From Promethearchaeota archaeon (GTDB lineage Archaea; Asgardarchaeota; Thorarchaeia; Thorarchaeales; Thorarchaeaceae), in contig JALVPN010000066.1 in NCBI GenBank assembly GCA_027031765.1, positions 1 through 16,162 of the forward strand: a stretch of DNA of 16,162 bases, read 5' to 3'. The notes beneath the pieces were generated by a model. That model worked only from the letters and a program-made list of their open reading frames with translations, ran no database searches and was not told the origin of the DNA. A program made the translations under genes and the position numbers. Positions 852 through 14,268 of the stretch are shown in pieces; positions within the stretch are counted from its first letter, which is position 1, and each line of letters opens with the position of its first letter.

Positions 852-1508
852 GTGTGGAAGCTCGCCATTGTCGCTGCGGTCATGCTGGTGGTCTGCTCCA
901 CGTCGCTACTTGTGTACACGACCTACATGCGTGAACAGTACGTGACATATCGGGAGAGCGGTTCAAGTCCGGACATTTCTGTCAGCACATCCTTGGACGG
1001 TGGACACTCCTACCTTGTGTACGTGACCCTGACCCGTAGTGCGAAGGGGTCAGCATCAGTGCACGGCACGGTGGAAGTGATTGTGAACGGCACGACCGTA
1101 CACACTATGACCCTTAGTGCTACCCGCAGCTCCGGCAAGCCCGCAAAGTCGGTCACAGCAGTGGCCTCAGAGGGGTACGAGCTGGTACTGACGCACACCT
1201 CTGAGCTTGTGGTACGTGGGAACATGACTGTGGGTGATAGCTGGGAGGTGAAGGTGTACGCGGACATCCCGCAGTGGCTGGCCTCCCTGACAACGCAGGC
1301 CATACTGTTCTTTGGTGCCACCGTCGTGTTGCTCATGGGTCTCGGCCTGCCCTACGTAGTGAAGTACCACACCAGGCGAGGTGGACAGCGCACGTTGGTG
1401 TCAACCACTACAGAGGGGCAGCTGATGGGTGACCGGCCAGCCGTAGACGACAAAGGGGCCCTGGCAGACAGCGACAGCAGCTGGGACGAGTGGGACACAG
1501 ATAGGTGA
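852..1508 (+). CDS. Two-TM surface protein with a beta-rich extracellular domain and acidic C-terminal tail; paralog of 9508-10095
   Basis: GTG start, with an in-frame TGA at 831-833. N-terminal TM (WKLAIVAAVMLVVCSTSLLVY), Ser/Thr/Val-rich beta-like middle with sequons NGT and NMT, second TM (AILFFGATVVLLMGLGLPYVV), tail ending DSDSSWDEWDTDR. Shares NGTTV and GxMxxGDSWEVxVYxDxP with 9508-10095. Confidence 0.85.
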   Translation: MWKLAIVAAVMLVVCSTSLLVYTTYMREQYVTYRESGSSPDISVSTSLDGGHSYLVYVTLTRSAKGSASVHGTVEVIVNGTTVHTMTLSATRSSGKPAKSVTAVASEGYELVLTHTSELVVRGNMTVGDSWEVKVYADIPQWLASLTTQAILFFGATVVLLMGLGLPYVVKYHTRRGGQRTLVSTTTEGQLMGDRPAVDDKGALADSDSSWDEWDTDR

Positions 1509-1554: not shown

Positions 1555-2583
1555 TCACTGCTGGTGCCAGCACTCTGGGTCTGGGCCTAGGAAGTCACCA
1601 CCGTAGTAGTACGCGTTGCCCCTGCAGCCCCAGCATATGCTGTTGTACTTGCAGTTGCGGCAGGCAGCCGACAGGTGTGAGGGGTCACGGAGTGGTACCT
1701 TGAGGAGGAGCTCTTTCGCGGACTCAAAGGGGCCGGCGAAGTCGGAACCATTGAGCCGTGCCACAGGGTGGCGGATCCTTGCACAGGGCGTCAGCTCGCC
1801 CCCAATGGTCACCGCGCAGGTCGTCCCGCAGTAGAACTTGCTGACGCAGTTAGGGATGACCGGCATCTCCCCGTTGAACACAGTGTCACTTATGGTCTGG
1901 TATGCCTGTCGTATCTGTCCTCTGGTGGGGACGTATCTGTCTGCATCGGGGACACCTGGGGCCGGTTTGAAAGGGACAATGCCAGATGCAATGCCGTACT
2001 CGTGGAAGAGTCTCTCCACGGTTCGTTCGAGGTCACCGTCGGCCTGTAAGCGGGTGAAGGTCATACAGTTGTTCAGCCTTGCCGGGTCCACGCCCATGTC
2101 GAGCAGTGTGCGTACGTTGGAGAGCACCCTGTCAATGTAACTGCTGGCGCCTGCCAGCTGACGGTAGAGCTCGGGGTCGAGAGTGTCCAAGTGGAACGAT
2201 ACGAAGCCCTGCGTGTGTTCCTCGAGCAGGAAGTCCACCACCGTGTCGGACAGCAGCATGTCGCCCGAGCTCCAGATGTTGTTCGTCAGGCCCAGGGCTG
2301 TGCTGGCGGCTAGCAGCTCTTCGAAGGACGGGTGCCTCACTGGGTCGCCGCCCAGCCACTCAATTACCCTCACGCCCACGTCAGCAGCCTGTTCCAGCAC
2401 GGACAGTACGAGCTCGCCGTCCATGTGGGTCACAGGCTGTCCGGGAGTGCGCACGTAGCAGAACTTGCAGCCCTGACCACATGCGGTCGTTATCTCCAGC
2501 TGGAGCGAGTAGAGCTGCTGTTTTTCGAAGTACTCGACCATGGTACTGTTGAAGAAGTAACCATCGATATCGGTCACACTCAT
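1555..2583 (-). CDS. Radical SAM protein with C-terminal SPASM domain (PqqE/NirJ/AhbC-D-like architecture), substrate unknown
   Basis: CxxxCxxC motif CGQGCKFC, WLGGDP strand motif, auxiliary-cluster motifs C..CGTTCAVTIGGELTPC and CRNC-x5-CWGCRGNAY...GD...DPEC. Start moved to ATG 2583 (MSVTDID, 342 aa) because GGTGA lies at 2598-2594; the ORF-track start at 2682 is probably too long. Confidence 0.92.
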   Translation of the reverse strand: MSVTDIDGYFFNSTMVEYFEKQQLYSLQLEITTACGQGCKFCYVRTPGQPVTHMDGELVLSVLEQAADVGVRVIEWLGGDPVRHPSFEELLAASTALGLTNNIWSSGDMLLSDTVVDFLLEEHTQGFVSFHLDTLDPELYRQLAGASSYIDRVLSNVRTLLDMGVDPARLNNCMTFTRLQADGDLERTVERLFHEYGIASGIVPFKPAPGVPDADRYVPTRGQIRQAYQTISDTVFNGEMPVIPNCVSKFYCGTTCAVTIGGELTPCARIRHPVARLNGSDFAGPFESAKELLLKVPLRDPSHLSAACRNCKYNSICWGCRGNAYYYGGDFLGPDPECWHQQ

Positions 2584-2712
2584 CTGGGGCCCCTCACCAG
2601 ACTGCGGGACGGCGGTGTTGCAGCCGTTCAGTTGCCATGCAGTCGTTGTCCTCGACTCACTTATCTCTCGCGCTCGGGGCACGCTACCGGCCCTGTCGAA
2701 TGGACGTGGTCC

Positions 2713-3771
2713 TCATCCGGAGAAGTACCTTGTGAGGAACATGTCAACCCAGTCGTAGAAGGAGCCGAGCATCTCCCTCACAAGGCCTACGCCGAGACGC
2801 CGACGCAGGATCGTGTCGACCACTGCCTTTCTGAGGAATGGGTAGTAGTGTGGCAGTGGGAACACGTTCAGTGGAAACTTCTGGTGCCTGGTGAGGAAGA
2901 TGTTGACCCGCTCGACCCAGCGCGCGTTCACGACATCCTCGGTGTACGCGGTGGGGTCCTGCACTACGAGTGACTCGAGCTCGGCAAGCATGGGTGAGAA
3001 TATCTCGCGCTGCACTTCGTCGAAGGAGAAGCCCTGTGGGCGCATCTCTGGTGAAGTGGCGAGCCGCCTGTAGAGGTCGGCCAGGTCGTCGGAGCCGGGC
3101 ACCGTGTAGACCTCGCGCCGGAGCCGGACCAGCCGGGAGAACTCTGTGGACAGCCCCCTGTCCTTCTCGAGGACAGAGAACACATGGACGAAGTGAGTAC
3201 TGTCCCATGTGTCGTCACCGAACAGATCCTTGAACATTGTCACTGTCGTGCGGTAGGCACCCGGTATGCGCAGCTCGTGGGGACTCGTGATGCTCCAGAT
3301 GTTCATGAAGACAAATGGTGGCATGCCGAGGTCACGTGGTGCATCGGGCCGGTAGCTTGGGAAACAGTAGTTCCCATCGACCACTATCAGGTCCGGCTGG
3401 AATCCCTCGACGCCACGCTCGACGGCATACGAGACCGCAGCCTCCCGGAGGAGCTCGAACACCTGTTCAGGACCGAGGGGGCTGAACTCCCGTGGCCTGA
3501 CGAGGTGCAGTTGGTCGGTCACGGGCAGGTAGTATGCTGTCCCCACAGAGGGTAGTGAGAAGGCGGTCTCAAAACGCCGTTCAGCACCGTCACGCAGGTC
3601 GCGCAAGGCCTGGAAGAGGTCCTGGTTCGTGTGGTTGATGTCCACAGCCAAGACTCTGAGAGGTGGGGATCTTGACAGCGCCCACATGACCAGCGCAATG
3701 GCCAGTGGTGTCTTCCCACTGCCACCCTTGTTGCTCGTCACAATGACCGTCTGTGGTGTCTTGATCTGCAT
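2713..3771 (-). CDS. Divergent ParA/MinD-superfamily (SIMIBI) P-loop ATPase
   Basis: Deviant Walker A TSNKGGSGKT near the N-terminus, Walker A'-like RVLAVDINHTNQDL, Walker B-like PDLIVVDG, and a C-terminal LPHYYPFLRKAV segment resembling the ParA IP...v..A region. ATG directly abuts the upstream TGA. Confidence 0.85.
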   Translation of the reverse strand: MQIKTPQTVIVTSNKGGSGKTPLAIALVMWALSRSPPLRVLAVDINHTNQDLFQALRDLRDGAERRFETAFSLPSVGTAYYLPVTDQLHLVRPREFSPLGPEQVFELLREAAVSYAVERGVEGFQPDLIVVDGNYCFPSYRPDAPRDLGMPPFVFMNIWSITSPHELRIPGAYRTTVTMFKDLFGDDTWDSTHFVHVFSVLEKDRGLSTEFSRLVRLRREVYTVPGSDDLADLYRRLATSPEMRPQGFSFDEVQREIFSPMLAELESLVVQDPTAYTEDVVNARWVERVNIFLTRHQKFPLNVFPLPHYYPFLRKAVVDTILRRRLGVGLVREMLGSFYDWVDMFLTRYFSG

Positions 3772-4731
3772 TCATATCACCGTCCAATCAAAACTGCCAC
3801 TCAGCACACCGATCACAAATGAGAGGACCGTACCCCAGCCGACATATAGGATGAAGTCCGTAAAGAACTGCAATATGACCACCCCTACGAAGGTGAGGAC
3901 GAGTTTCCGGATGATGGGACTTGGTGTGGCAAGTTCGTTCAGGTCACCGCGTGCGGCCTCTAAGAGGCGGAGGTTCTGACGCATGTCCCTTGTCGCGTCC
4001 TCCAGCTTTGCCTTGATGTACCCGGCCTCATCCGACAGCAGGCCCTCCTCAAGGACAATGCTACTGTTCTTCCAACGCCTGAGGAACTCGTCGATTGCAG
4101 CAAGGATGTCAAGCCGGTTGTGCTCTACCATGTCCTCGTACCGGCGCACCTCGTACACGACCACCTTTATGATGCTTGCAAGGATGATCAGTGTGCTCAG
4201 GTTCAGTACGTTGCTCAGGAAGAACGGCACCTTGAGGAGTGGGCTGCCCGGGAAGAACTCCTGGACTATCGTCAGTCCTCGCAGTCCCGTGGCCTTGTAC
4301 AGTGCAATGAACAGTGTCAACTTGAGTGTCAGGTACAGGCGGGACAGGGCCTGTCTGAGATAGCTCCGTGTTGCCTTGTCGTCCCCGACCTTGAAGGGCC
4401 TGTGCACGAACACAGAGTAGATGGTACCACCGATGTTCAACATGAACAGGAATGACACCAGCAGGAGGGCCAGCCCAAGGGCCAGTCGCACCCACCCCTC
4501 GACACTCATCACGCCCTCGTCAATCTGTTCCACAATCTCCTGTACCGTGATGAAGTCGCGCTGCCACACAGCTGCGAAGAGCCTGTCCATGAGCGCCTGG
4601 TCTGTAAGGAGGTAGCCCGCAAAGAAGAACCCGTACACAACGATTACCGTGAACGACGCAGCACTCACTGAGAGGAAAAAGGTGTCTAACCACCGTTCAT
4701 TGACGTGCGTGCCGCGGCCGTTCACTGACAT
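3772..4731 (-). CDS. Membrane protein of unknown function, about 5-6 TM helices with an internal coiled-coil-like helical segment
   Basis: 319-aa ORF with hydrophobic segments at about aa 17-42, 80-110, 132-147, 170-193 and 277-313. A charged heptad-like stretch (YIKAKLEDATRDMRQNLRLLEAARGDLNEL) lies before the last hairpin. The TGAATG stop/start junction with the ATPase suggests translational coupling. Confidence 0.82.
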   Translation of the reverse strand: MSVNGRGTHVNERWLDTFFLSVSAASFTVIVVYGFFFAGYLLTDQALMDRLFAAVWQRDFITVQEIVEQIDEGVMSVEGWVRLALGLALLLVSFLFMLNIGGTIYSVFVHRPFKVGDDKATRSYLRQALSRLYLTLKLTLFIALYKATGLRGLTIVQEFFPGSPLLKVPFFLSNVLNLSTLIILASIIKVVVYEVRRYEDMVEHNRLDILAAIDEFLRRWKNSSIVLEEGLLSDEAGYIKAKLEDATRDMRQNLRLLEAARGDLNELATPSPIIRKLVLTFVGVVILQFFTDFILYVGWGTVLSFVIGVLSGSFDWTVI

Positions 4732-5020: not shown

Positions 5021-8000
5021 TTAGGTCGGCCTACGACCGGACTGCGTGGACTCTGGATTTGATAGGCGGAGCACCATTGAGACCCAAGTGCAAGGCTTGG
5101 TTGTCGCTGTTGTGGAACCCGAGCCGCTACTATTCCCACCACCAGTCCGGTCTGCAAAGCAGTCACGGTAGCACGGCCCCGACACGGATGCAACAAGCAC
5201 TTCCAGTACAAACTGTGTGTTGTCTGCCGACCCCTCCATTCCCTCCATTTCTATGAGCCGTCCACCTGGTTTCCCAAGCTGTTTGAGTAGCAGGTCATAG
5301 GACGCCGCGAAACACAGCAAGTTGTTCGTCCCAAACCTCGCTTGCAACCCCATGTTGTCCATAGTCCTGTAGGCTGCAGCAGGACACAGCCGGGTGTCCA
5401 TGTTAGTATCCAGACGCTTGGACACTCTGCTTCCCTGAGGTGTGTACTGGGCGATTGGGGCAATCTTGATGTAGACTCCGCCGTTACTCTCGGTCACTTT
5501 CAAGCCCAGCTCAGAACCAAAGCGACTGGCAATCTTCACAAACCTGCTCGCAATGTGCGACCAGACGGACTTACCACCTTCGTCCGTTACAATGTAGGCA
5601 GTCTTGATCCACGGAAGACCAGCCTCACTCTCAGTGCCCTCACCATCCCCAGTGTCCTCAGTGCCCTCACCATCCCCAGTGTCCTCAGTGCCCTCACCAT
5701 CCCCAGTGTCCTCAGTGCCCTCACCATCCCCAGTGTCCTCAGTGCCCTCACCATCCCCAGTGTCCTTAGTATCCACATAGTCCCATACCGCTTGGACAAT
5801 CGCACGGGGTTCCCACTGGTTGCATGGGACAATGGTGAAGGTGAGAAGGTTCTTTGTTGGAGTGCCACTCGGTCGGTCCGAAATGTCCATCCCAACGGTG
5901 CCTGCAAGGGTTTCCAAAAGCCGGATGAAAGACCCTGGTGCGTCGTTCATGCACACCGCAAGATGAGCAACAGACCACTTACGTGGGTACTCGCTGGTCG
6001 GAGGATGTGAACCAGACTCGCTCCCAGTCATTTCGTCACCTTGACGGTCATAGATGAGGTGACGCAGCATCAACACCAAGGGTATGATATTGGGACTTGA
6101 GCAGCCATACGTCACACGGCCCCTCACAAGACCCCGTGTGACAAGGAGGTAGTCAGGATGTAGGATCCAATGGAACCCCATTGCGTTCTCGTCTGGGTTC
6201 TTTGCAATCTGCCTCCCTGCATGACAGTGAATCCTACAATGAGGTAGCCGGACATCGTGTTCATCCTGGCGTGGCGTGACTGGTTCATCGTGTCGGGATG
6301 GGTGTTCACCATATCGGGCTATTGCTGACAACATGGATGCCACCAGTTGGGGGCGGGGCACTATTGTCGGGATTAGGTGGATGTGGCCGCAACTCCTCAT
6401 TGTCCGGGCCAGTGTTTCGATGCAGGTGCGTGCTTGGTTTGCATCCTCTGTTTCAATCACCAATCTAATCGTATGTTCCACATGTGGGAAGTCGTGGTCG
6501 GCCGAGCCGCCGCTGCTGGGCCCTCCGCCAGTCTGCTGGCTGGTGCGAAACTGCAGCACCCTCATGAGCCACTTTGTGACCATGAATGGGTCCACTTCAC
6601 TCCCATCAATCGAAACGACTTGCATGTTGTGGACAACGTTGTGGAGTACACCTTGATGTGGCTGCCCAATGAAGACGTCCAACCATTTGACCAACGGGGC
6701 CTCGTCCTCCGAAGTCCCCAAGGAGTCACGGAAGTGCAGGGGCACAAGTCCGGTTACCAAGGCATCATGCCGCGGCCGATAGACAAATGCCTCCCATCTA
6801 TCTGGACGCACCATGTATGCAGAAATGGACGCCAGTTCCTTCTCGGCCTCCTTTTTGAAGGCGGATTTGTTTCCCCCGTTCATGGTGCTGACCAGCCCCC
6901 ACACCATGGTCTCGAGCGCATAGAACAGCCTGCGTGACGGCTCCCCCACAGATACTATGTCCGCATCGAGTAGTGCGGGGTAGTCTGCCCCACTCTCTCC
7001 GTGACGCGCAGGGGCCTCTGTTGCACCACTCCCAGTTATCCGACGCGCATTGGGTAGGGCCCACCCGATGAGGGCAAAAGCACCGGTGAATGAGGCAAGC
7101 CACCTGTTTGGGAAGACCGGTACCGTATCAAGTCTGGGGCTGCCAGCCGCCGTGATAGTATTCTCCCGCATCACGAGTTGTACAGTATTCGAAGAGTCAA
7201 CCACCGTGACCAGGACAGGCCAGGTGCGGTTGAAGTCAATCGGCCTGTCACGCAGACTGCGGGCGTGCTGCAACATTGAGAGCATTGCTGTGCGGTTGAA
7301 CGGTGTGTAGACGACAATCTTGGCATACCTCATGAACCTGCGCGCAATGGGGTTGCGGGAAACATCCTCAACTATTGCTGGCACGAGCAACACCATGTGT
7401 CTGGGCGAGTCGAGTGCGATCTCAAGGACCCCGTAGGTCCCGAGGTGTGGATGAGTCCCCATTGTCCGAATCGTCTGTGCCGAGTCTATTACCGCCATCC
7501 CTTTGACAATGTATATCCAGGTATCGGGACGAGTGGGGGAGCGCGGAAGGGCTTGGAGTGAAATGCCGGTCTTGCGACTCACGAGCACAGGGTACCCTTT
7601 GTCTATGCCTTCCAGCAGATCTTCTTGGAACAGTGTCCTCGACACTACATCTATGACGAAGAACTCAGCCACTTTTCCACTCCCGACCAGCAGGTAGGCA
7701 TACGTGCCTGATGACAGCGCCCGTGTCACCACATTGCCTATGAAGTCACTCTCTTCCGAGTACCTCGTGAAACTTGACAGGACCATGGCATAGAAGGGCA
7801 CAGCCATGCCGAGGTCTATCGCCATCAACAGGCTCGGATTTGTCAGGGAGCTCGGGCCCGGTGTGATGGGGAAGAACACCATCTGGGCAATGTAGACATA
7901 CTTTGTGAACATGGCCATGAGGAGTACAATCAACTGGGTCCTAAAGTTGAGCCTGAGGATGTGGGAACCATATACGGACTCGGGCCCCCTCAACATGAAG

Positions 8001-9115
8001 AACATACACAGAAGACCGAGGAGCAGACTGGCAGCCACTACGTACGACGCGCCAACGAAACATGCTTTCAGGTATAGCGTAGCGTCAGCCTTCGCAACTA
8101 GTGGGGCGGCCTCCTGTAGTGTTGGGATTGAGAGGAGTGCCATTGCCATTATGCAACCCGCGTAGAACACGAACCTGTTCGCAATACGGTTGTTGCCGCT
8201 GAGTGTGACGTAGCTGAGCAATATGTCCTTCAAGTCATGGATGCCGCGGATTCGAAGACCTTCCGTTCTCTTTGGTACCCCTACAATGGTCCAGACAATC
8301 GCTGCTACCAGCCACCCGATGAGTACCAGTACGATGACGGCCGGCATGACGAGTAGTAATGACCATGTGATGGACACGAGAAGTGTGATGTCGGGGAGGA
8401 GCACACTCGCCAAGGGCAAGTAGAACATGATACACGGGGCCACAACGCATGCCATACAGAGCCCCAGTGCTGTGTGGCAAGCGATGTCGGTCTTGTCGGA
8501 ACCAGTCAGAGCAGCATGCTGCCTCGTGCGCCAAAAGTGGACCAAGTACATGCACCACACAAGCGACAACACGACCAAGTACCTCTGCACGAGAACGCCA
8601 TCAGGGACTATCTGTGAGGGTGTACTTCCATAGACCAAGATATGTATGGCCTCACGGACGAAAGGGGCACTGAATGTGCACATGGCGATAGACAACACAG
8701 CTAGAATCTCGACAGCATGCCTCACGAAGGGCAAGAATGTCCATCCAGTAGGCGAGCTGGTGGCCGACTCGGCGCGCCTCTGCATGTTCCACCCCCGCAT
8801 GAAATTGTCTATTGCCACAGCAACAAAGGTCGGCAGGCCAATGAATGTTGTCACAATCACTGCCCAAACGGGTGTGAATCCCAGTTCGCATAACAAGGCC
8901 TCCAGGAAGGTCAAGTAATACAGTTCGCCATACGTGCAGTACAACACGACCCTAACAATCATGGCGGCCAGGGGCAAGAACCAGCCGATGAGTGCAAACA
9001 CCACACAGTACAAGAGAAACTTGCCTCGCTCCGCGTGCCCAGTCGAATGTTTCGTCGTGGCCAAGACAGATTGCCTCCCGCATGGCATGCGAGACCAGAC
9101 GGGCAGCGTGCCCAC
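5021..9115 (-). CDS. 1364-aa membrane protein: about 10 TM helices, divergent RCK/TrkA-N-like domain(s), ACT-like domain(s), acidic tandem-repeat insert
   Basis: About 10 hydrophobic segments in the first 460 aa. YAYLLVGSGKVAEFF (aa about 472) resembles the Rossmann GxGxxG start of TrkA-N. ARSL...VLVTVVDSSN...VFPNRWLAS resembles the RCK-N ending, and a second similar ending occurs at IRLVIETED...IVPRPQLVASML. HLAVCMNDAPGSFIRLLETLAG resembles the ACT beta1-loop-alpha1. The ORF is high confidence; the domain calls are moderate. The GTG start is uncertain by a few codons. Confidence 0.75.
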   Translation of the reverse strand: MGTLPVWSRMPCGRQSVLATTKHSTGHAERGKFLLYCVVFALIGWFLPLAAMIVRVVLYCTYGELYYLTFLEALLCELGFTPVWAVIVTTFIGLPTFVAVAIDNFMRGWNMQRRAESATSSPTGWTFLPFVRHAVEILAVLSIAMCTFSAPFVREAIHILVYGSTPSQIVPDGVLVQRYLVVLSLVWCMYLVHFWRTRQHAALTGSDKTDIACHTALGLCMACVVAPCIMFYLPLASVLLPDITLLVSITWSLLLVMPAVIVLVLIGWLVAAIVWTIVGVPKRTEGLRIRGIHDLKDILLSYVTLSGNNRIANRFVFYAGCIMAMALLSIPTLQEAAPLVAKADATLYLKACFVGASYVVAASLLLGLLCMFFMLRGPESVYGSHILRLNFRTQLIVLLMAMFTKYVYIAQMVFFPITPGPSSLTNPSLLMAIDLGMAVPFYAMVLSSFTRYSEESDFIGNVVTRALSSGTYAYLLVGSGKVAEFFVIDVVSRTLFQEDLLEGIDKGYPVLVSRKTGISLQALPRSPTRPDTWIYIVKGMAVIDSAQTIRTMGTHPHLGTYGVLEIALDSPRHMVLLVPAIVEDVSRNPIARRFMRYAKIVVYTPFNRTAMLSMLQHARSLRDRPIDFNRTWPVLVTVVDSSNTVQLVMRENTITAAGSPRLDTVPVFPNRWLASFTGAFALIGWALPNARRITGSGATEAPARHGESGADYPALLDADIVSVGEPSRRLFYALETMVWGLVSTMNGGNKSAFKKEAEKELASISAYMVRPDRWEAFVYRPRHDALVTGLVPLHFRDSLGTSEDEAPLVKWLDVFIGQPHQGVLHNVVHNMQVVSIDGSEVDPFMVTKWLMRVLQFRTSQQTGGGPSSGGSADHDFPHVEHTIRLVIETEDANQARTCIETLARTMRSCGHIHLIPTIVPRPQLVASMLSAIARYGEHPSRHDEPVTPRQDEHDVRLPHCRIHCHAGRQIAKNPDENAMGFHWILHPDYLLVTRGLVRGRVTYGCSSPNIIPLVLMLRHLIYDRQGDEMTGSESGSHPPTSEYPRKWSVAHLAVCMNDAPGSFIRLLETLAGTVGMDISDRPSGTPTKNLLTFTIVPCNQWEPRAIVQAVWDYVDTKDTGDGEGTEDTGDGEGTEDTGDGEGTEDTGDGEGTEDTGDGEGTESEAGLPWIKTAYIVTDEGGKSVWSHIASRFVKIASRFGSELGLKVTESNGGVYIKIAPIAQYTPQGSRVSKRLDTNMDTRLCPAAAYRTMDNMGLQARFGTNNLLCFAASYDLLLKQLGKPGGRLIEMEGMEGSADNTQFVLEVLVASVSGPCYRDCFADRTGGGNSSGSGSTTATTKPCTWVSMVLRLSNPESTQSGRRPT
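5630..5764. repeat. Perfect tandem repeat, 5 x 27 bp (CTCAGTGCCCTCACCATCCCCAGTGTC), coding (DTGDGEGTE)x5 on the minus strand
   Basis: Identical units at 5630, 5657, 5684, 5711 and 5738, with no spacers. In frame with the 1364-aa CDS. Confidence 0.97.
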
Positions 9116-9507: not shown

Positions 9508-10095
9508 TCAGGTCTCGGGGCTCCCACTCGTGGGTGCCGTTTCCTTGGTGGCGGAGCGCCCAGAGAGATCCCAGTAGGTCGCGTACTTTGCGAGAGCAAT
9601 GACTGTCAGGATGCCGGTCACACCTATTGCGACTACAGAGTACGTGACTAGGGCCTGCGCCTCTGGTGGGACATCCTGATAGACACGCACCTCCCAAGAG
9701 TCGCCCAGTACCATGTGGCCTGTGACACGCACCTCCGTGGCCCCTGTCGCATTGAATGAGTAGAATGCCGTTGCCTGTGCACGGCTGGACGACCCGCTGG
9801 AGGACTCTGTGTCTAGGACAGTGGCATTGTAGACCGTGGTACCATTGAGGAGGATGATCACGTCCCCTTTTGCGGTCGCTATGCTGCCGCCGCTGCGATA
9901 GATGTCCACGCGGATGGTGTACGCATGGTCGCCTTCGACGGTCGTCGTGAAGACAAAGTCATCTTCCAGGCCCGTGTCGTAGCCAGCAACGTACTGTTCG
10001 AGGTTGAGGTTGGCAAGGACAAAAGTGCAGACTGAAAGGGCCAGCGCTGCGATACAGACGACTGTCACTCGCTTCCAGAATGTCTTCGTACCCAT
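9508..10095 (-). CDS. Two-TM surface protein with a beta-rich extracellular domain; paralog of 852-1508
   Basis: Perfect GGAGGTG at 10108-10102 supports ATG 10095 (MGTKTFWKR, 195 aa) over the GTG at 10104. TM1 VTVVCIAALALSVCTFVLA; sequons NGT, NAT, NAT; GDSWEVRVYQDVP; TM2 LVTYSVVAIGVTGILTVIALA. Confidence 0.85.
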   Translation of the reverse strand: MGTKTFWKRVTVVCIAALALSVCTFVLANLNLEQYVAGYDTGLEDDFVFTTTVEGDHAYTIRVDIYRSGGSIATAKGDVIILLNGTTVYNATVLDTESSSGSSSRAQATAFYSFNATGATEVRVTGHMVLGDSWEVRVYQDVPPEAQALVTYSVVAIGVTGILTVIALAKYATYWDLSGRSATKETAPTSGSPET

Positions 10096-10432
10096 TATGT
10101 GCACCTCCCACGCACGGCCCAGAGGCGACCTGCGGCGACCACAGGCCGACGGACGGGCGCGGGTCTGCAGACCGGGCGGGTACTATGGACTACCACTCCC
10201 CGGGCCATGCCGGGTCATTGCGGTAAGTCGTGGTCCCAGACACTTAAGTCATGTGGCAGTCCATACTGGCACCGGGCCTGTTGCTACATGGGCACTGCTC
10301 GCTGGGTGGCGGCTGCCGCGCTACAATAGCGGGCCCCGCATCACCTCTCATATATGTAGTAGACACACCGTCAGGACGTTGGCCGGGCGTCGCTGACATC
10401 TCCCGCTCCACCAGCAGGCAGGTGGTGTCTGT

Positions 10433-12126: not shown

Positions 12127-14268
12127 TTGACACGCTACAGGGGAGCCGACCCGGTCGTTGACCTTGTCTATGAGGCCATGACACGGAGAAACAAACTGGC
12201 GTTCAAGTTGTTCTCGCACGCAGAGAGCGTCGTGATCCGACTTGAGGAGGTGGTCGAGGACGCCGCCTTCGGGGTAGCGGTCACCAGCGAGTACGAGCAC
12301 TACCACAAACGGGCCCACTGTGAACCCGGCTCTGACCTCTCCAGTGTCCACACATACTCATTGCAGGGGACACGCGTACCACCAATGCGGCCCACTTCGT
12401 TCACAACACGCTACGACGAGTTCCCACGGGAGGGCAGCGTGCTCACGGAGGCCTGTAGGTGTGGTGGCCGACCAGTGACATGTCCCAACTGTTCTGGCAC
12501 CCGTGTTGTCACCTGCCCCAAGTGCTACCAACCGCGGAGTGGCAAGTGTAGAAACTGTGCCGGTAGCGGCCTCGTGGACTGCCCACAGTGTGGTGCGACC
12601 GGGCGTTGCAGTGGGTGCGGGGGCTCTGGCACAGTGCGGTGTCCAGAGTGTAGTGGGAGGGGCACCGTGCTCAGGGAGTGGAAAGAGAGGCGCACCTGCA
12701 GGGCGTGCAGTGGTAGGGGCTACGTGAGCGGCTATCCGTGTACCAACTGCTACACCACGGGTGTTGAGACCGTGACTCGCTCCGAGTATGTCACCTGCTC
12801 GCGTTGCGGTGGTGAGGGCCGTGTGCCGCACAGCAAGTGCGGTGGGACTGGCAAGTGTACACGCTGTGGGGGTGAGGGGCATGTGCCTTGCGAAGTATGT
12901 CACGGCACGGGCATCTGCCAGTTCTGTGATGGTGCTGGCACCAAGACCTGTCCAACGTGCGGGGGCGGTGGTACAGTGACGTGCCCGGTCTGCGAGGGGG
13001 TTGGCAGCCTCCTCCTCTACGTCTCTGACTGTTACGAGTACGAGCCCATCTGCGACGACGACCGTGTTGTGCCGGGGTACTTCAAAGATGTGCGTGACAG
13101 GCTCGACAGCAGCCTTGCAGTGGCAATGGAGCGCCTCGACGCGGACGACCTCTACTCCGCCATCGGGCTCAGCAACAACCGCATGCTGGGCACCCTCGAC
13201 AGGGCAAAGGAGCTGCACTCGGGCCTGATAGCAAGGGCGAAGGGACGCCAGTTCAACACCGGGAGCACCGACCCCGACAGTGCTCTCAGAGCGGAGGCAC
13301 GTTCAAAGGTGGAGTCCGAAGTCGACAGGGACTGGGCTGCCAACAACAGTGACTCGTACTACGCATCCTACCTGCTACATGTGCCCGGCAGCGCCCGCAG
13401 TACGGACTCGGACCGGTACTACACCACAATAATCGCCATGAAACACGACTTCAAGACGTGGCCGCTCGGGCTTGTCAACTACACTGCTGGTGGGAAGCCG
13501 CGCACAAGGTACGTAGTCGGTACGAAGGAGGCCTCTGTGACAACTGAGAAAGGGGCGAGCAGACGCGCCCTGGGTAAGGTCCTGGCCTTCGTGGTCGGCG
13601 TCTTCACACTATCAGTACTCCTGCTCAACCAGTTCACCAGTTACCAGTTCTACCCCGCCTACGGTTCCCTCTGGCTGGCCCTTGCTCTCGTGTCATGGGC
13701 ATCATATTTCGCCCTCCTATACCGTACTGTGAGCACCCAGACCGAAGAGCTGGTCGTCGTCACGAGTACGGACGACCTTGACGGTCTGACGTTGGTAGCG
13801 GCACTGGCCCACTGTGCAGCCGAGGAGGACGCTGCGGTCCCCGAAGACCCCATATGCGAGAAACTGACCGCGCACCTCCTTGGAGACCGCCTCGTGCTCG
13901 GCTCATCGGTCTGTTACACACTCTCAAGGAGCACCGGACGCGGTGTCCGCGTGCTGTACATGTCAGGGGCCACGGTCAGGACTCCGACCGCAGCGGCACG
14001 GGCACTCGTATCACTGGCAAGCAAGGTGATTGTCGTGGTCTCAGCAGGTGCGGACGGGGCAGACCTACTAGACAGCATTGTTGCTCTGGTGAAGGACGCC
14101 ACATCTCAGAAGCTGCTCGTGGCCCCTGAGGGCGTGCCAGTGCCTGACGACATCGGGGGAAAAAAGGTCAACATGGACCTCAGTGCGGTCAGGGGCATGT
14201 TGGAAACGGCATCGGACAGTGCGACGCGCACCCTAAGACCGCTACTGTCCCAGGTGATCGGTGACTGA
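12127..14268 (+). CDS. SSUH2-like protein with an expanded CxxCxGxG zinc-knuckle array, two TM helices and a C-terminal degenerate GTPase-like domain
   Basis: 14 CxxC + 1 HxxC + 1 CxC motifs at 12454-13005. Flanking segments PTSF...FPREGSVLTEAC, CEGVGSLLLY and IIAMKHDFKTWPLGLVNYTAGGKPRTRYVVGT recall SSUH2-family sequences. Two TMs at about 13567-13722. C-terminal strand order fits a small-GTPase fold lacking GKS/T. No J-domain. Start taken as TTG 12127 (GGAGG at 12112-12116; 713 aa); ATG 12178 or GTG 12070 are alternatives, and the track start at 11896 overlaps the divergent gene. Confidence 0.78.
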   Translation: MTRYRGADPVVDLVYEAMTRRNKLAFKLFSHAESVVIRLEEVVEDAAFGVAVTSEYEHYHKRAHCEPGSDLSSVHTYSLQGTRVPPMRPTSFTTRYDEFPREGSVLTEACRCGGRPVTCPNCSGTRVVTCPKCYQPRSGKCRNCAGSGLVDCPQCGATGRCSGCGGSGTVRCPECSGRGTVLREWKERRTCRACSGRGYVSGYPCTNCYTTGVETVTRSEYVTCSRCGGEGRVPHSKCGGTGKCTRCGGEGHVPCEVCHGTGICQFCDGAGTKTCPTCGGGGTVTCPVCEGVGSLLLYVSDCYEYEPICDDDRVVPGYFKDVRDRLDSSLAVAMERLDADDLYSAIGLSNNRMLGTLDRAKELHSGLIARAKGRQFNTGSTDPDSALRAEARSKVESEVDRDWAANNSDSYYASYLLHVPGSARSTDSDRYYTTIIAMKHDFKTWPLGLVNYTAGGKPRTRYVVGTKEASVTTEKGASRRALGKVLAFVVGVFTLSVLLLNQFTSYQFYPAYGSLWLALALVSWASYFALLYRTVSTQTEELVVVTSTDDLDGLTLVAALAHCAAEEDAAVPEDPICEKLTAHLLGDRLVLGSSVCYTLSRSTGRGVRVLYMSGATVRTPTAAARALVSLASKVIVVVSAGADGADLLDSIVALVKDATSQKLLVAPEGVPVPDDIGGKKVNMDLSAVRGMLETASDSATRTLRPLLSQVIGD

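Follow-up and report, generated by a model that had tools for sequence, protein, structure and literature searches.

A distant archaeal relative of SSUH2 carries a putatively inactive GTPase domain beside DO-GTPase-like and GAP1-like genes

We found that a 713-aa protein encoded by an Asgard archaeon is a real but distant relative of eukaryotic SSUH2 (C3orf32), a conclusion supported at the level of its family, through which the link runs, and that its predicted C-terminal domain is a pseudo-GTPase related to the product of the next gene (Table 1). The gene lies in the window, by which we mean the whole 16,162-nt stretch of DNA analyzed here, contig C66 of a 2.95-Mb host genome that is 95% complete. 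The gene content of this genome suggests a Thorarchaeia-like Asgard archaeon, and a hydrothermal-vent sequencing run that contains the DNA may be its source. A preliminary description had treated the first 478 residues as an apparently complete SSUH2-like module. The blocks it listed are indeed present and in order (the motif entering the array spans aa 89-110, the one leaving it aa 286-298, and the closing strand block aa 435-466), while an insertion, an oversized zinc rod and the C-terminal pseudo-GTPase were missing from it.

Architecture and likeness to SSUH2

The gene begins with a TTG codon 10 nt downstream of a GGAGG site, and an identical product is called in a public assembly. The protein is laid out as a 109-aa N-terminal region, a zinc array spanning aa 110-293, and a post-zinc region that extends to approximately aa 470. 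The array comprises 14 strict CxxC motifs together with one CxC at aa 110 and one HxxC at aa 235, and nested pairing of these half-sites would yield the zinc content given in Table 1. Like the DnaJ zinc finger and plant BSD2, it presents CxxCxGxG zinc sites in a beta-hairpin ladder, but it has approximately four times the zinc sites of DnaJ and no J domain, and is thus a J-less array of the DnaJ type. Rod length differs among homologs, from about 4 to 16 half-sites, and the insertion at aa 377-432 is absent from SSUH2 and from proteins P0093, P0095, P0115 and P0116.

Table 1. Positions in the window of the 713-aa gene, its parts and the two genes downstream.
Feature	Position	Strand	Remarks
713-aa gene: SSUH2-family module, two membrane helices, predicted inactive GTPase domain	12127..14268	+	one open frame
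SSUH2 core, N-terminal half (helices, long strand)	12127..12453	+	E57, P67, P89, F92 conserved in archaea, bacteria and eukaryotes
DnaJ/BSD2-type zinc rod inserted in core	12454..13005	+	16 half-sites, probably 8 Zn
Core strand and helices past zinc rod	13006..13254	+	
Insertion of ~55 aa (aa 377-432)	13255..13422	+	confined to one archaeal sub-branch
SSUH2 core, terminal beta-hairpin	13423..13536	+	P446, G465 conserved in all groups
Two membrane helices with short loop (aa 480-535)	13564..13731	+	hydropathy; helices in predicted model
Putative pseudo-GTPase domain (176 aa), paralog of next gene	13738..14265	+	Walker A and G4 lost
Predicted active DO-GTPase-like TRAFAC GTPase, 274 aa	14504..15328	+	G1, G3 with Glu, G4 intact
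GAP1-like protein, cut by contig end	15438..16162	+	homologs ~305-337 aa

The likeness to SSUH2 survived removal of the CxxC repeats, the test that the preliminary description had named as able to refute it. With the zinc array cut from all sequences, HHalign compared a 14-member profile of the family with a 15-member eukaryotic SSUH2 profile. E-values were 1.4e-4 for the N flank and 3.1e-6 for the C flank, and the two flanks taken together matched at prob 94% (E = 1e-7, score 56.6); pairing the N flank of either profile with the C flank of the other gave no match. As controls for the joint score, the best of 100 block shuffles reached 19.5 and reversal reached 10.8. A zinc-free HMM built from eukaryotic sequences alone placed ten family members above all 11,062 genome-ORF decoys and 500 shuffles, and the reverse search placed ten SSUH2 sequences within the top eleven places. 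A zinc-free HMM of prokaryote-type proteins gave SSUH2 88-144 bits and family members up to 53.5 bits, the value of P0078. Residues E57, F92 and G465 were each at least 87% conserved in all three groups (archaea, bacteria and eukaryotes). Because the profile used to collect the eukaryotic set, in which proteins carry their NCBI and UniRef names, contained archaeal fragments, scores against that set may be somewhat inflated. It could be argued that the likeness consists only of CxxC repeats and low complexity, with flanks that are unrelated, and the 713-aa protein taken singly does score weakly on both zinc-free HMMs (13.6 bits, E = 0.019 among approximately 11,600 sequences, on the eukaryote-only HMM, and 9 bits on the prokaryote-type one). 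We regard this argument as extremely improbable in light of the separate and ordered flank matches, the decoy and shuffle comparisons, the scores of P0078 and SSUH2, and the residues shared by all three groups.

Structure prediction also retrieved SSUH2. An AlphaFold model of aa 1-475 from a 94-row alignment (pLDDT 93, pTM 0.74; pLDDT 35 from the single sequence) showed long strands arising from both flanks and a zinc rod folded as a hairpin ladder. A search of the Atlas with this model matched the chordate ‘protein SSUH2 homolog’ cluster at a TM of 0.42 over 250 residues spanning 2-472, with predicted models on both sides and the value lying below 0.5 because of the longer rod in the 713-aa protein; bacterial clusters sharing the same build were returned as well. 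The structural matches extend over residues 2-475, which fits a single core formed by the N and C flanks and split by the inserted zinc array. Matches in the PDB (Foldseek, VIA) covered the rod only, namely BSD2 and DnaJ, and none was clear for the domain that hosts the rod. An ESM Atlas feature search with the 713-aa protein returned weak zinc-array clusters only, and the same search with P0007 returned an SSUH2 cluster at 0.78, which we treat only as a lead.

Eukaryotic SSUH2 (for example XP_068940145.1, XP_063797347.1 and XP_077980843.1) resembles the 713-aa protein in its split alpha/beta core with a DnaJ-type rod at the same place, in the absence of a J domain, in its conserved non-zinc residues, and in carrying a predicted membrane tether right past the core. 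The two differ in zinc sites (4-6 CxxC per module in SSUH2 against 16 half-sites), in the insertion of approximately 55 aa, and at the C-terminus, where two membrane helices and the putative pseudo-GTPase stand in place of a cysteine-rich, CaaX-like end, with a cysteine four residues from the terminus in 13 of the 16 eukaryotic sequences. Identity is approximately 20%, mostly in the zinc rod.

The pseudo-GTPase and its partner genes

The C-terminal domain aligned to the GTPase family of the neighboring gene (HHalign prob 92.6%), and an HMM of the domain found, outside its own family, partner GTPases as the sole matches among approximately 11,600 sequences. Walker A is kept in one of 19 family members (P0093) and G4 in none, and the 713-aa protein has neither. 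We take these alignments to show that the domain is a GTPase predicted to be dead, and a paralog of the adjacent GTPase, which is predicted to be active. Six of ten partner GTPases matched Pfam DO-GTPase2 and DO-GTPase was the best family, with all matches falling below the cut-off, and PADLOC gave only a weak mad8 match. Within the host genome, the partner GTPase has a single paralog match, a canonical DO-GTPase encoded on contig C118. That locus (L069:4289-12956) holds a second, canonical DO-GTPase system. Its DO-GTPase scores above the Pfam cut-off and is accompanied by a GAP1-N2/GAP1-M protein of 1552 aa and an FG-GAP propeller protein of 980 aa.

The family of the third gene matched the GAP1-M region in the canonical GAP1-N2 protein of the C118 locus (prob 63%, E = 7e-5); the gene itself matched Pfam GAP1-M at E = 0.11, below the cut-off, with the GAP1 N and C domains unmatched. 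By eye, its product resembles a longin + DENN module, a likeness for which neither Pfam nor PDB sequence searches gave a match. Co-folding of the GTPase with the pseudo-GTPase gave 0.47 against 0.00 for the best control, which lends weak support to their contact, since passes at or below 0.60 came from 7 of 80 solved complexes and from both mismatches that passed, and are oftener wrong than right unless the pairing is likely beforehand. The calibrated mark was reached by 58 of the 80 solved complexes and by 2 of 110 mismatched pairs; co-folding runs shared at least 68% of contacts, with partner pLDDT of at least 81.

Genes for the zinc protein, the DO-GTPase-like protein and the GAP1-like protein stood together in 8 of 11 loci examined (the window, L002, L007, L028, L032, L034, L036 and L037), adjacent in several gene orders and at GC contents of 34-64%. 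Three loci from an Asgard sub-branch and one more long-type locus (L090-L092) had no GTPase or GAP1 gene nearby, and in two GTPase/GAP1 loci (L029 and L030) the zinc protein was not found within the stretch examined. Of the 87 genomes in the host's class, 86 belong to a single family; among 85 genomes of that family, neither the zinc protein nor a close GTPase ortholog was present (two weak GTPase matches only). Locus GC (0.62) is close to the genome mean (0.59). We consider this distribution to show that the predicted three-gene GTPase module is spread patchily, across domains. Its neighbors vary, and include CHAT proteases, HEAT-ubiquitin, E1/E2-like/JAB-like genes, UEV-EAP30, TPR, HepT/nucleotidyltransferase and AbiEii. 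No effector gene is visible in the window, because the contig ends inside the GAP1-like gene, and no GASH or FNIII Pfam match was found among the called genes of the loci, several of which lie on cut contigs.

Some of these loci had further features of their own. In another Asgard family, GTPase/GAP1 genes are accompanied by HEAT-ubiquitin fusions, E1, E2-like and JAB-like genes (L028:266-8712 and L029:4817-12077). A fusion of UEV with an EAP30/Vps36-family domain is encoded in the module operon at L032:7151-7999, where it adjoins the only homolog with an intact Walker A. At L007:4108-11138, two GTPase/GAP1-like pairs flank a zinc-protein homolog with several frameshifts, which could reflect assembly error or decay.

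Bacterial relatives and the eukaryotic-signature question

Word-based searches identified two true homologs and an acidic, halophile-like short form, and with the zinc-free C-terminal part as query they returned nothing but the 713-aa protein itself. Genome searches added a further Asgard homolog and a Chloroflexi-type kinase fusion with just four CxxC. Pattern scans of genome contigs gave no match, a metagenome pattern scan gave mostly DnaJ plus one kinase-SSUH2 fusion, and shallow profiles compared between archaea and Chloroflexi gave weak matches only. A mixed profile of the homologs found, with a short zinc array, was searched against 1.84 billion representatives and detected 2,553 clusters with an E of 0.001 or better, a number that may include zinc-only matches. 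The best 150 of the 2,553, which we examined, contained named SSUH2 proteins of marsupials, frog, fish and a hemichordate, an unnamed choanoflagellate protein, and many bacterial-type proteins; about 20 were long like the 713-aa protein, one of them named as from a Nitrososphaerota archaeon.

The preliminary description had cautioned that bacterial homologs may exist and that the module is not necessarily a eukaryotic signature, and both cautions were well placed: the many bacterial homologs are much closer to SSUH2 than is the 713-aa family, and bacterial-type proteins outscore that family on the eukaryote-only HMM. On this HMM, 97 prokaryote-type proteins, mostly bacterial and including one amoebozoan recognized later, had a median of 53 bits (61 of 97 at 40 bits or more), while the best score was 18.6 bits in the 713-aa family and 15.6 bits among 24 further SSUH2-like proteins of Asgard archaea. 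In a zinc-free tree that included bacterial hits, as had been suggested (154 rows, 209 columns, LG+G4, quick search), the 713-aa family formed a single clade (SH-aLRT 98), with which other Asgard forms grouped (99), and eukaryotes nested among bacterial-type rows (SH-aLRT 99), of which two of those nearest to eukaryotes have bacterial neighborhoods; one bacterial cluster is Microcystis. Neither the HMM scores nor the tree placed Asgard proteins as the closest prokaryotic relatives of eukaryotic SSUH2. AU tests, for which five long branches and 45 random rows were dropped from the tree set, did not reject trees in which eukaryotes group with the archaea-rich clade (p = 0.57 when three near bacterial-type rows were included and 0.21 without them), nor those in which they group with the 713-aa family plus the near rows (p = 0.07).

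These AU results, and the fact that 62 of 400 genomes from the phylum carry SSUH2-like genes, are what would favor viewing the 713-aa protein as a eukaryotic-signature protein of Asgard archaea that lies on the line to SSUH2, with a GTPase partnership ancestral to SSUH2 function. The low Asgard bit scores, the nesting of eukaryotes with bacterial-type rows in the free tree, and the presence of a GTPase domain in none of the eukaryotic sequences retrieved weigh against this, and we consider it very unlikely. On present evidence, the 713-aa protein should not be counted as an Asgard eukaryotic signature, although an archaeal origin is not rejected by the trees.

Proposed function and wider relatives

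We see about an even chance that the 713-aa protein is a membrane-tethered sensor or scaffold serving as the third component of an undescribed variant of DO-GTPase/GAP1 conflict systems. Starting from the architecture, paralogy, gene linkage and patchy spread documented above, we infer the remainder as follows. The two-helix hairpin would place the zinc rod and the pseudo-GTPase on the cytoplasmic side, where the pseudo-GTPase, as the second copy of a ‘double GTPase’, would dock the active GTPase and keep it at the membrane. The GAP1-like protein would govern the nucleotide cycle of the active GTPase, the SSUH2 core and length-variable rod would bind, at the membrane, a protein that signals an invader or stress, and this cue would trigger the variable neighboring outputs (caspase-like CHAT, ubiquitin-like ligation genes, UEV-EAP30 and TPR proteins). 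The ‘GTPase-centric’ systems described by Kaur et al. (2020; PMC7159879) similarly comprise a TRAFAC GTPase with Glu after G3 and a GAP1-like gene, bear zinc and membrane segments on one of the GTPase copies, and are mobile with variable neighbors, and the variable neighbors and shuffled three-gene loci fit that description. Two paralogous GTPase copies, a trait of 38% of known systems, are present here as well. They differ in that the second copy is apparently dead and fused to an SSUH2 module, the GAP1 is short (approximately 310 aa) and below Pfam cut-offs, and GASH and FNIII are not found. SSUH2 and DnaJ were not found in the accessible part of the supplement of PMC7159879. Counted against the conflict reading are the sub-cut-off Pfam hits, the partnerless loci L090-L092, the zinc-less L029 and L030, and the near-mean GC; the defense role of DO-GTPase systems is, moreover, itself a prediction (PMC7159879). 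The locus would add a third component and a pseudo-GTPase to these predicted systems.

A family consisting of a zinc ribbon, core and membrane helix, which shares the build of Bacillus subtilis YdjG and may be YdjG-like, is encoded by tandem genes on host contig C49 (L068:1214-3245) and in 35 of 36 relatives from the host's family. HHalign matched its core to the zinc-free profile of the SSUH2 superfamily at prob 91% over 187-215 columns, and its direct comparison with the 713-aa subfamily gave prob 0.3%; unlike the 713-aa protein, it has neither an inserted zinc rod nor a GTPase context. In L087, though not in the other genomes fetched, a C49-type pair precedes an SPFH (Band_7_1) gene. YdjG (SamG) belongs to the pspA-ydjGHI operon (PMC8581546, PMC13713150), and the SPFH gene in L087 is YdjI-like.

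The same genes lend themselves to a different account, possible if somewhat doubtful, in which the 713-aa protein is a membrane quality-control or assembly scaffold whose rod, as a J-less and GTPase-switched holdase, would pass clients to ubiquitin-like or ESCRT-related machinery. This would agree with the BSD2 and DnaJ matches of the rod, with the HEAT-ubiquitin, E1, E2-like, JAB-like and UEV-EAP30 neighbors, and with the near-universal zinc-less family of matching core that adjoins an SPFH gene in one genome; but the patchy cross-domain spread, shuffled gene order, CHAT, HepT/nucleotidyltransferase and AbiEii neighbors suit a conflict system better, and J domains and Hsp70 genes are absent from the loci examined.

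SSUH2 has been linked to dentin dysplasia type I and to muscle traits, with no mechanism given in the literature we found (PMC7818184, PMC12036297), and our search found no paper on prokaryotic SSUH2 homologs. The preliminary description had suggested that the GTPase context could hint at what SSUH2 does. This was not borne out, as the pseudo-GTPase fusion and the GTPase/GAP1 operon occur only in a single divergent subfamily that is distant from the eukaryotic sequences; the other prokaryotic members stand alone or are fused to kinases or proteases, and no GTPase is annotated beside the nearest bacterial SSUH2 relatives examined. The GTPase context is private to the 713-aa subfamily and says little about animal SSUH2. 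The feature common to most homologs is instead a predicted C-terminal membrane tether directly after the core, where 83 of 95 prokaryote-type proteins have a membrane helix, and the CaaX-like end of eukaryotic SSUH2 may correspondingly be prenylated. This large prokaryotic family, with its conserved residues to mutate and shared tether theme, offers tractable models.

The worm SSUH2 homolog, ssu-2, is a stomatin suppressor, although our literature search retrieved no paper confirming this link. An unlikely but broader reading joins it to the above: SSUH2 would be the eukaryotic branch of a so far unrecognized prokaryotic superfamily of membrane-tethered sensors or scaffolds, in which one branch, that of the 713-aa protein, would work with a GTPase/pseudo-GTPase pair and with a GAP1 regulator, possibly DENN-like, and a second, zinc-less and YdjG-like, would recruit SPFH proteins. 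If this were true, animal SSUH2 would be a lipid-anchored partner of stomatin-type membrane scaffolds.

Several minor observations accompany these results. An amoebozoan (Rhizamoeba) SSUH2 homolog, P0156, has a C-terminal membrane helix as in prokaryotes and no CaaX-like motif. At L008:1345-3330, one fusion protein, from a sizeable family, combines a Chloroflexi-type Ser/Thr kinase with an SSUH2 module and ends in a membrane helix. Elsewhere in the window, a 1364-aa multi-pass membrane protein (5021-9115, minus strand) matches no convincing Pfam family; it has a large soluble part, and around aa 1120-1160 it carries a short tandem repeat that is acidic. Two alike small proteins (852-1508, plus strand; 9508-10104, minus strand), each with a membrane helix at either end and a beta-rich middle, are likely paralogs, and a single run on the minus strand (1555-4731) encodes a membrane protein, a ParA/MinD-like NTPase and a radical SAM protein.
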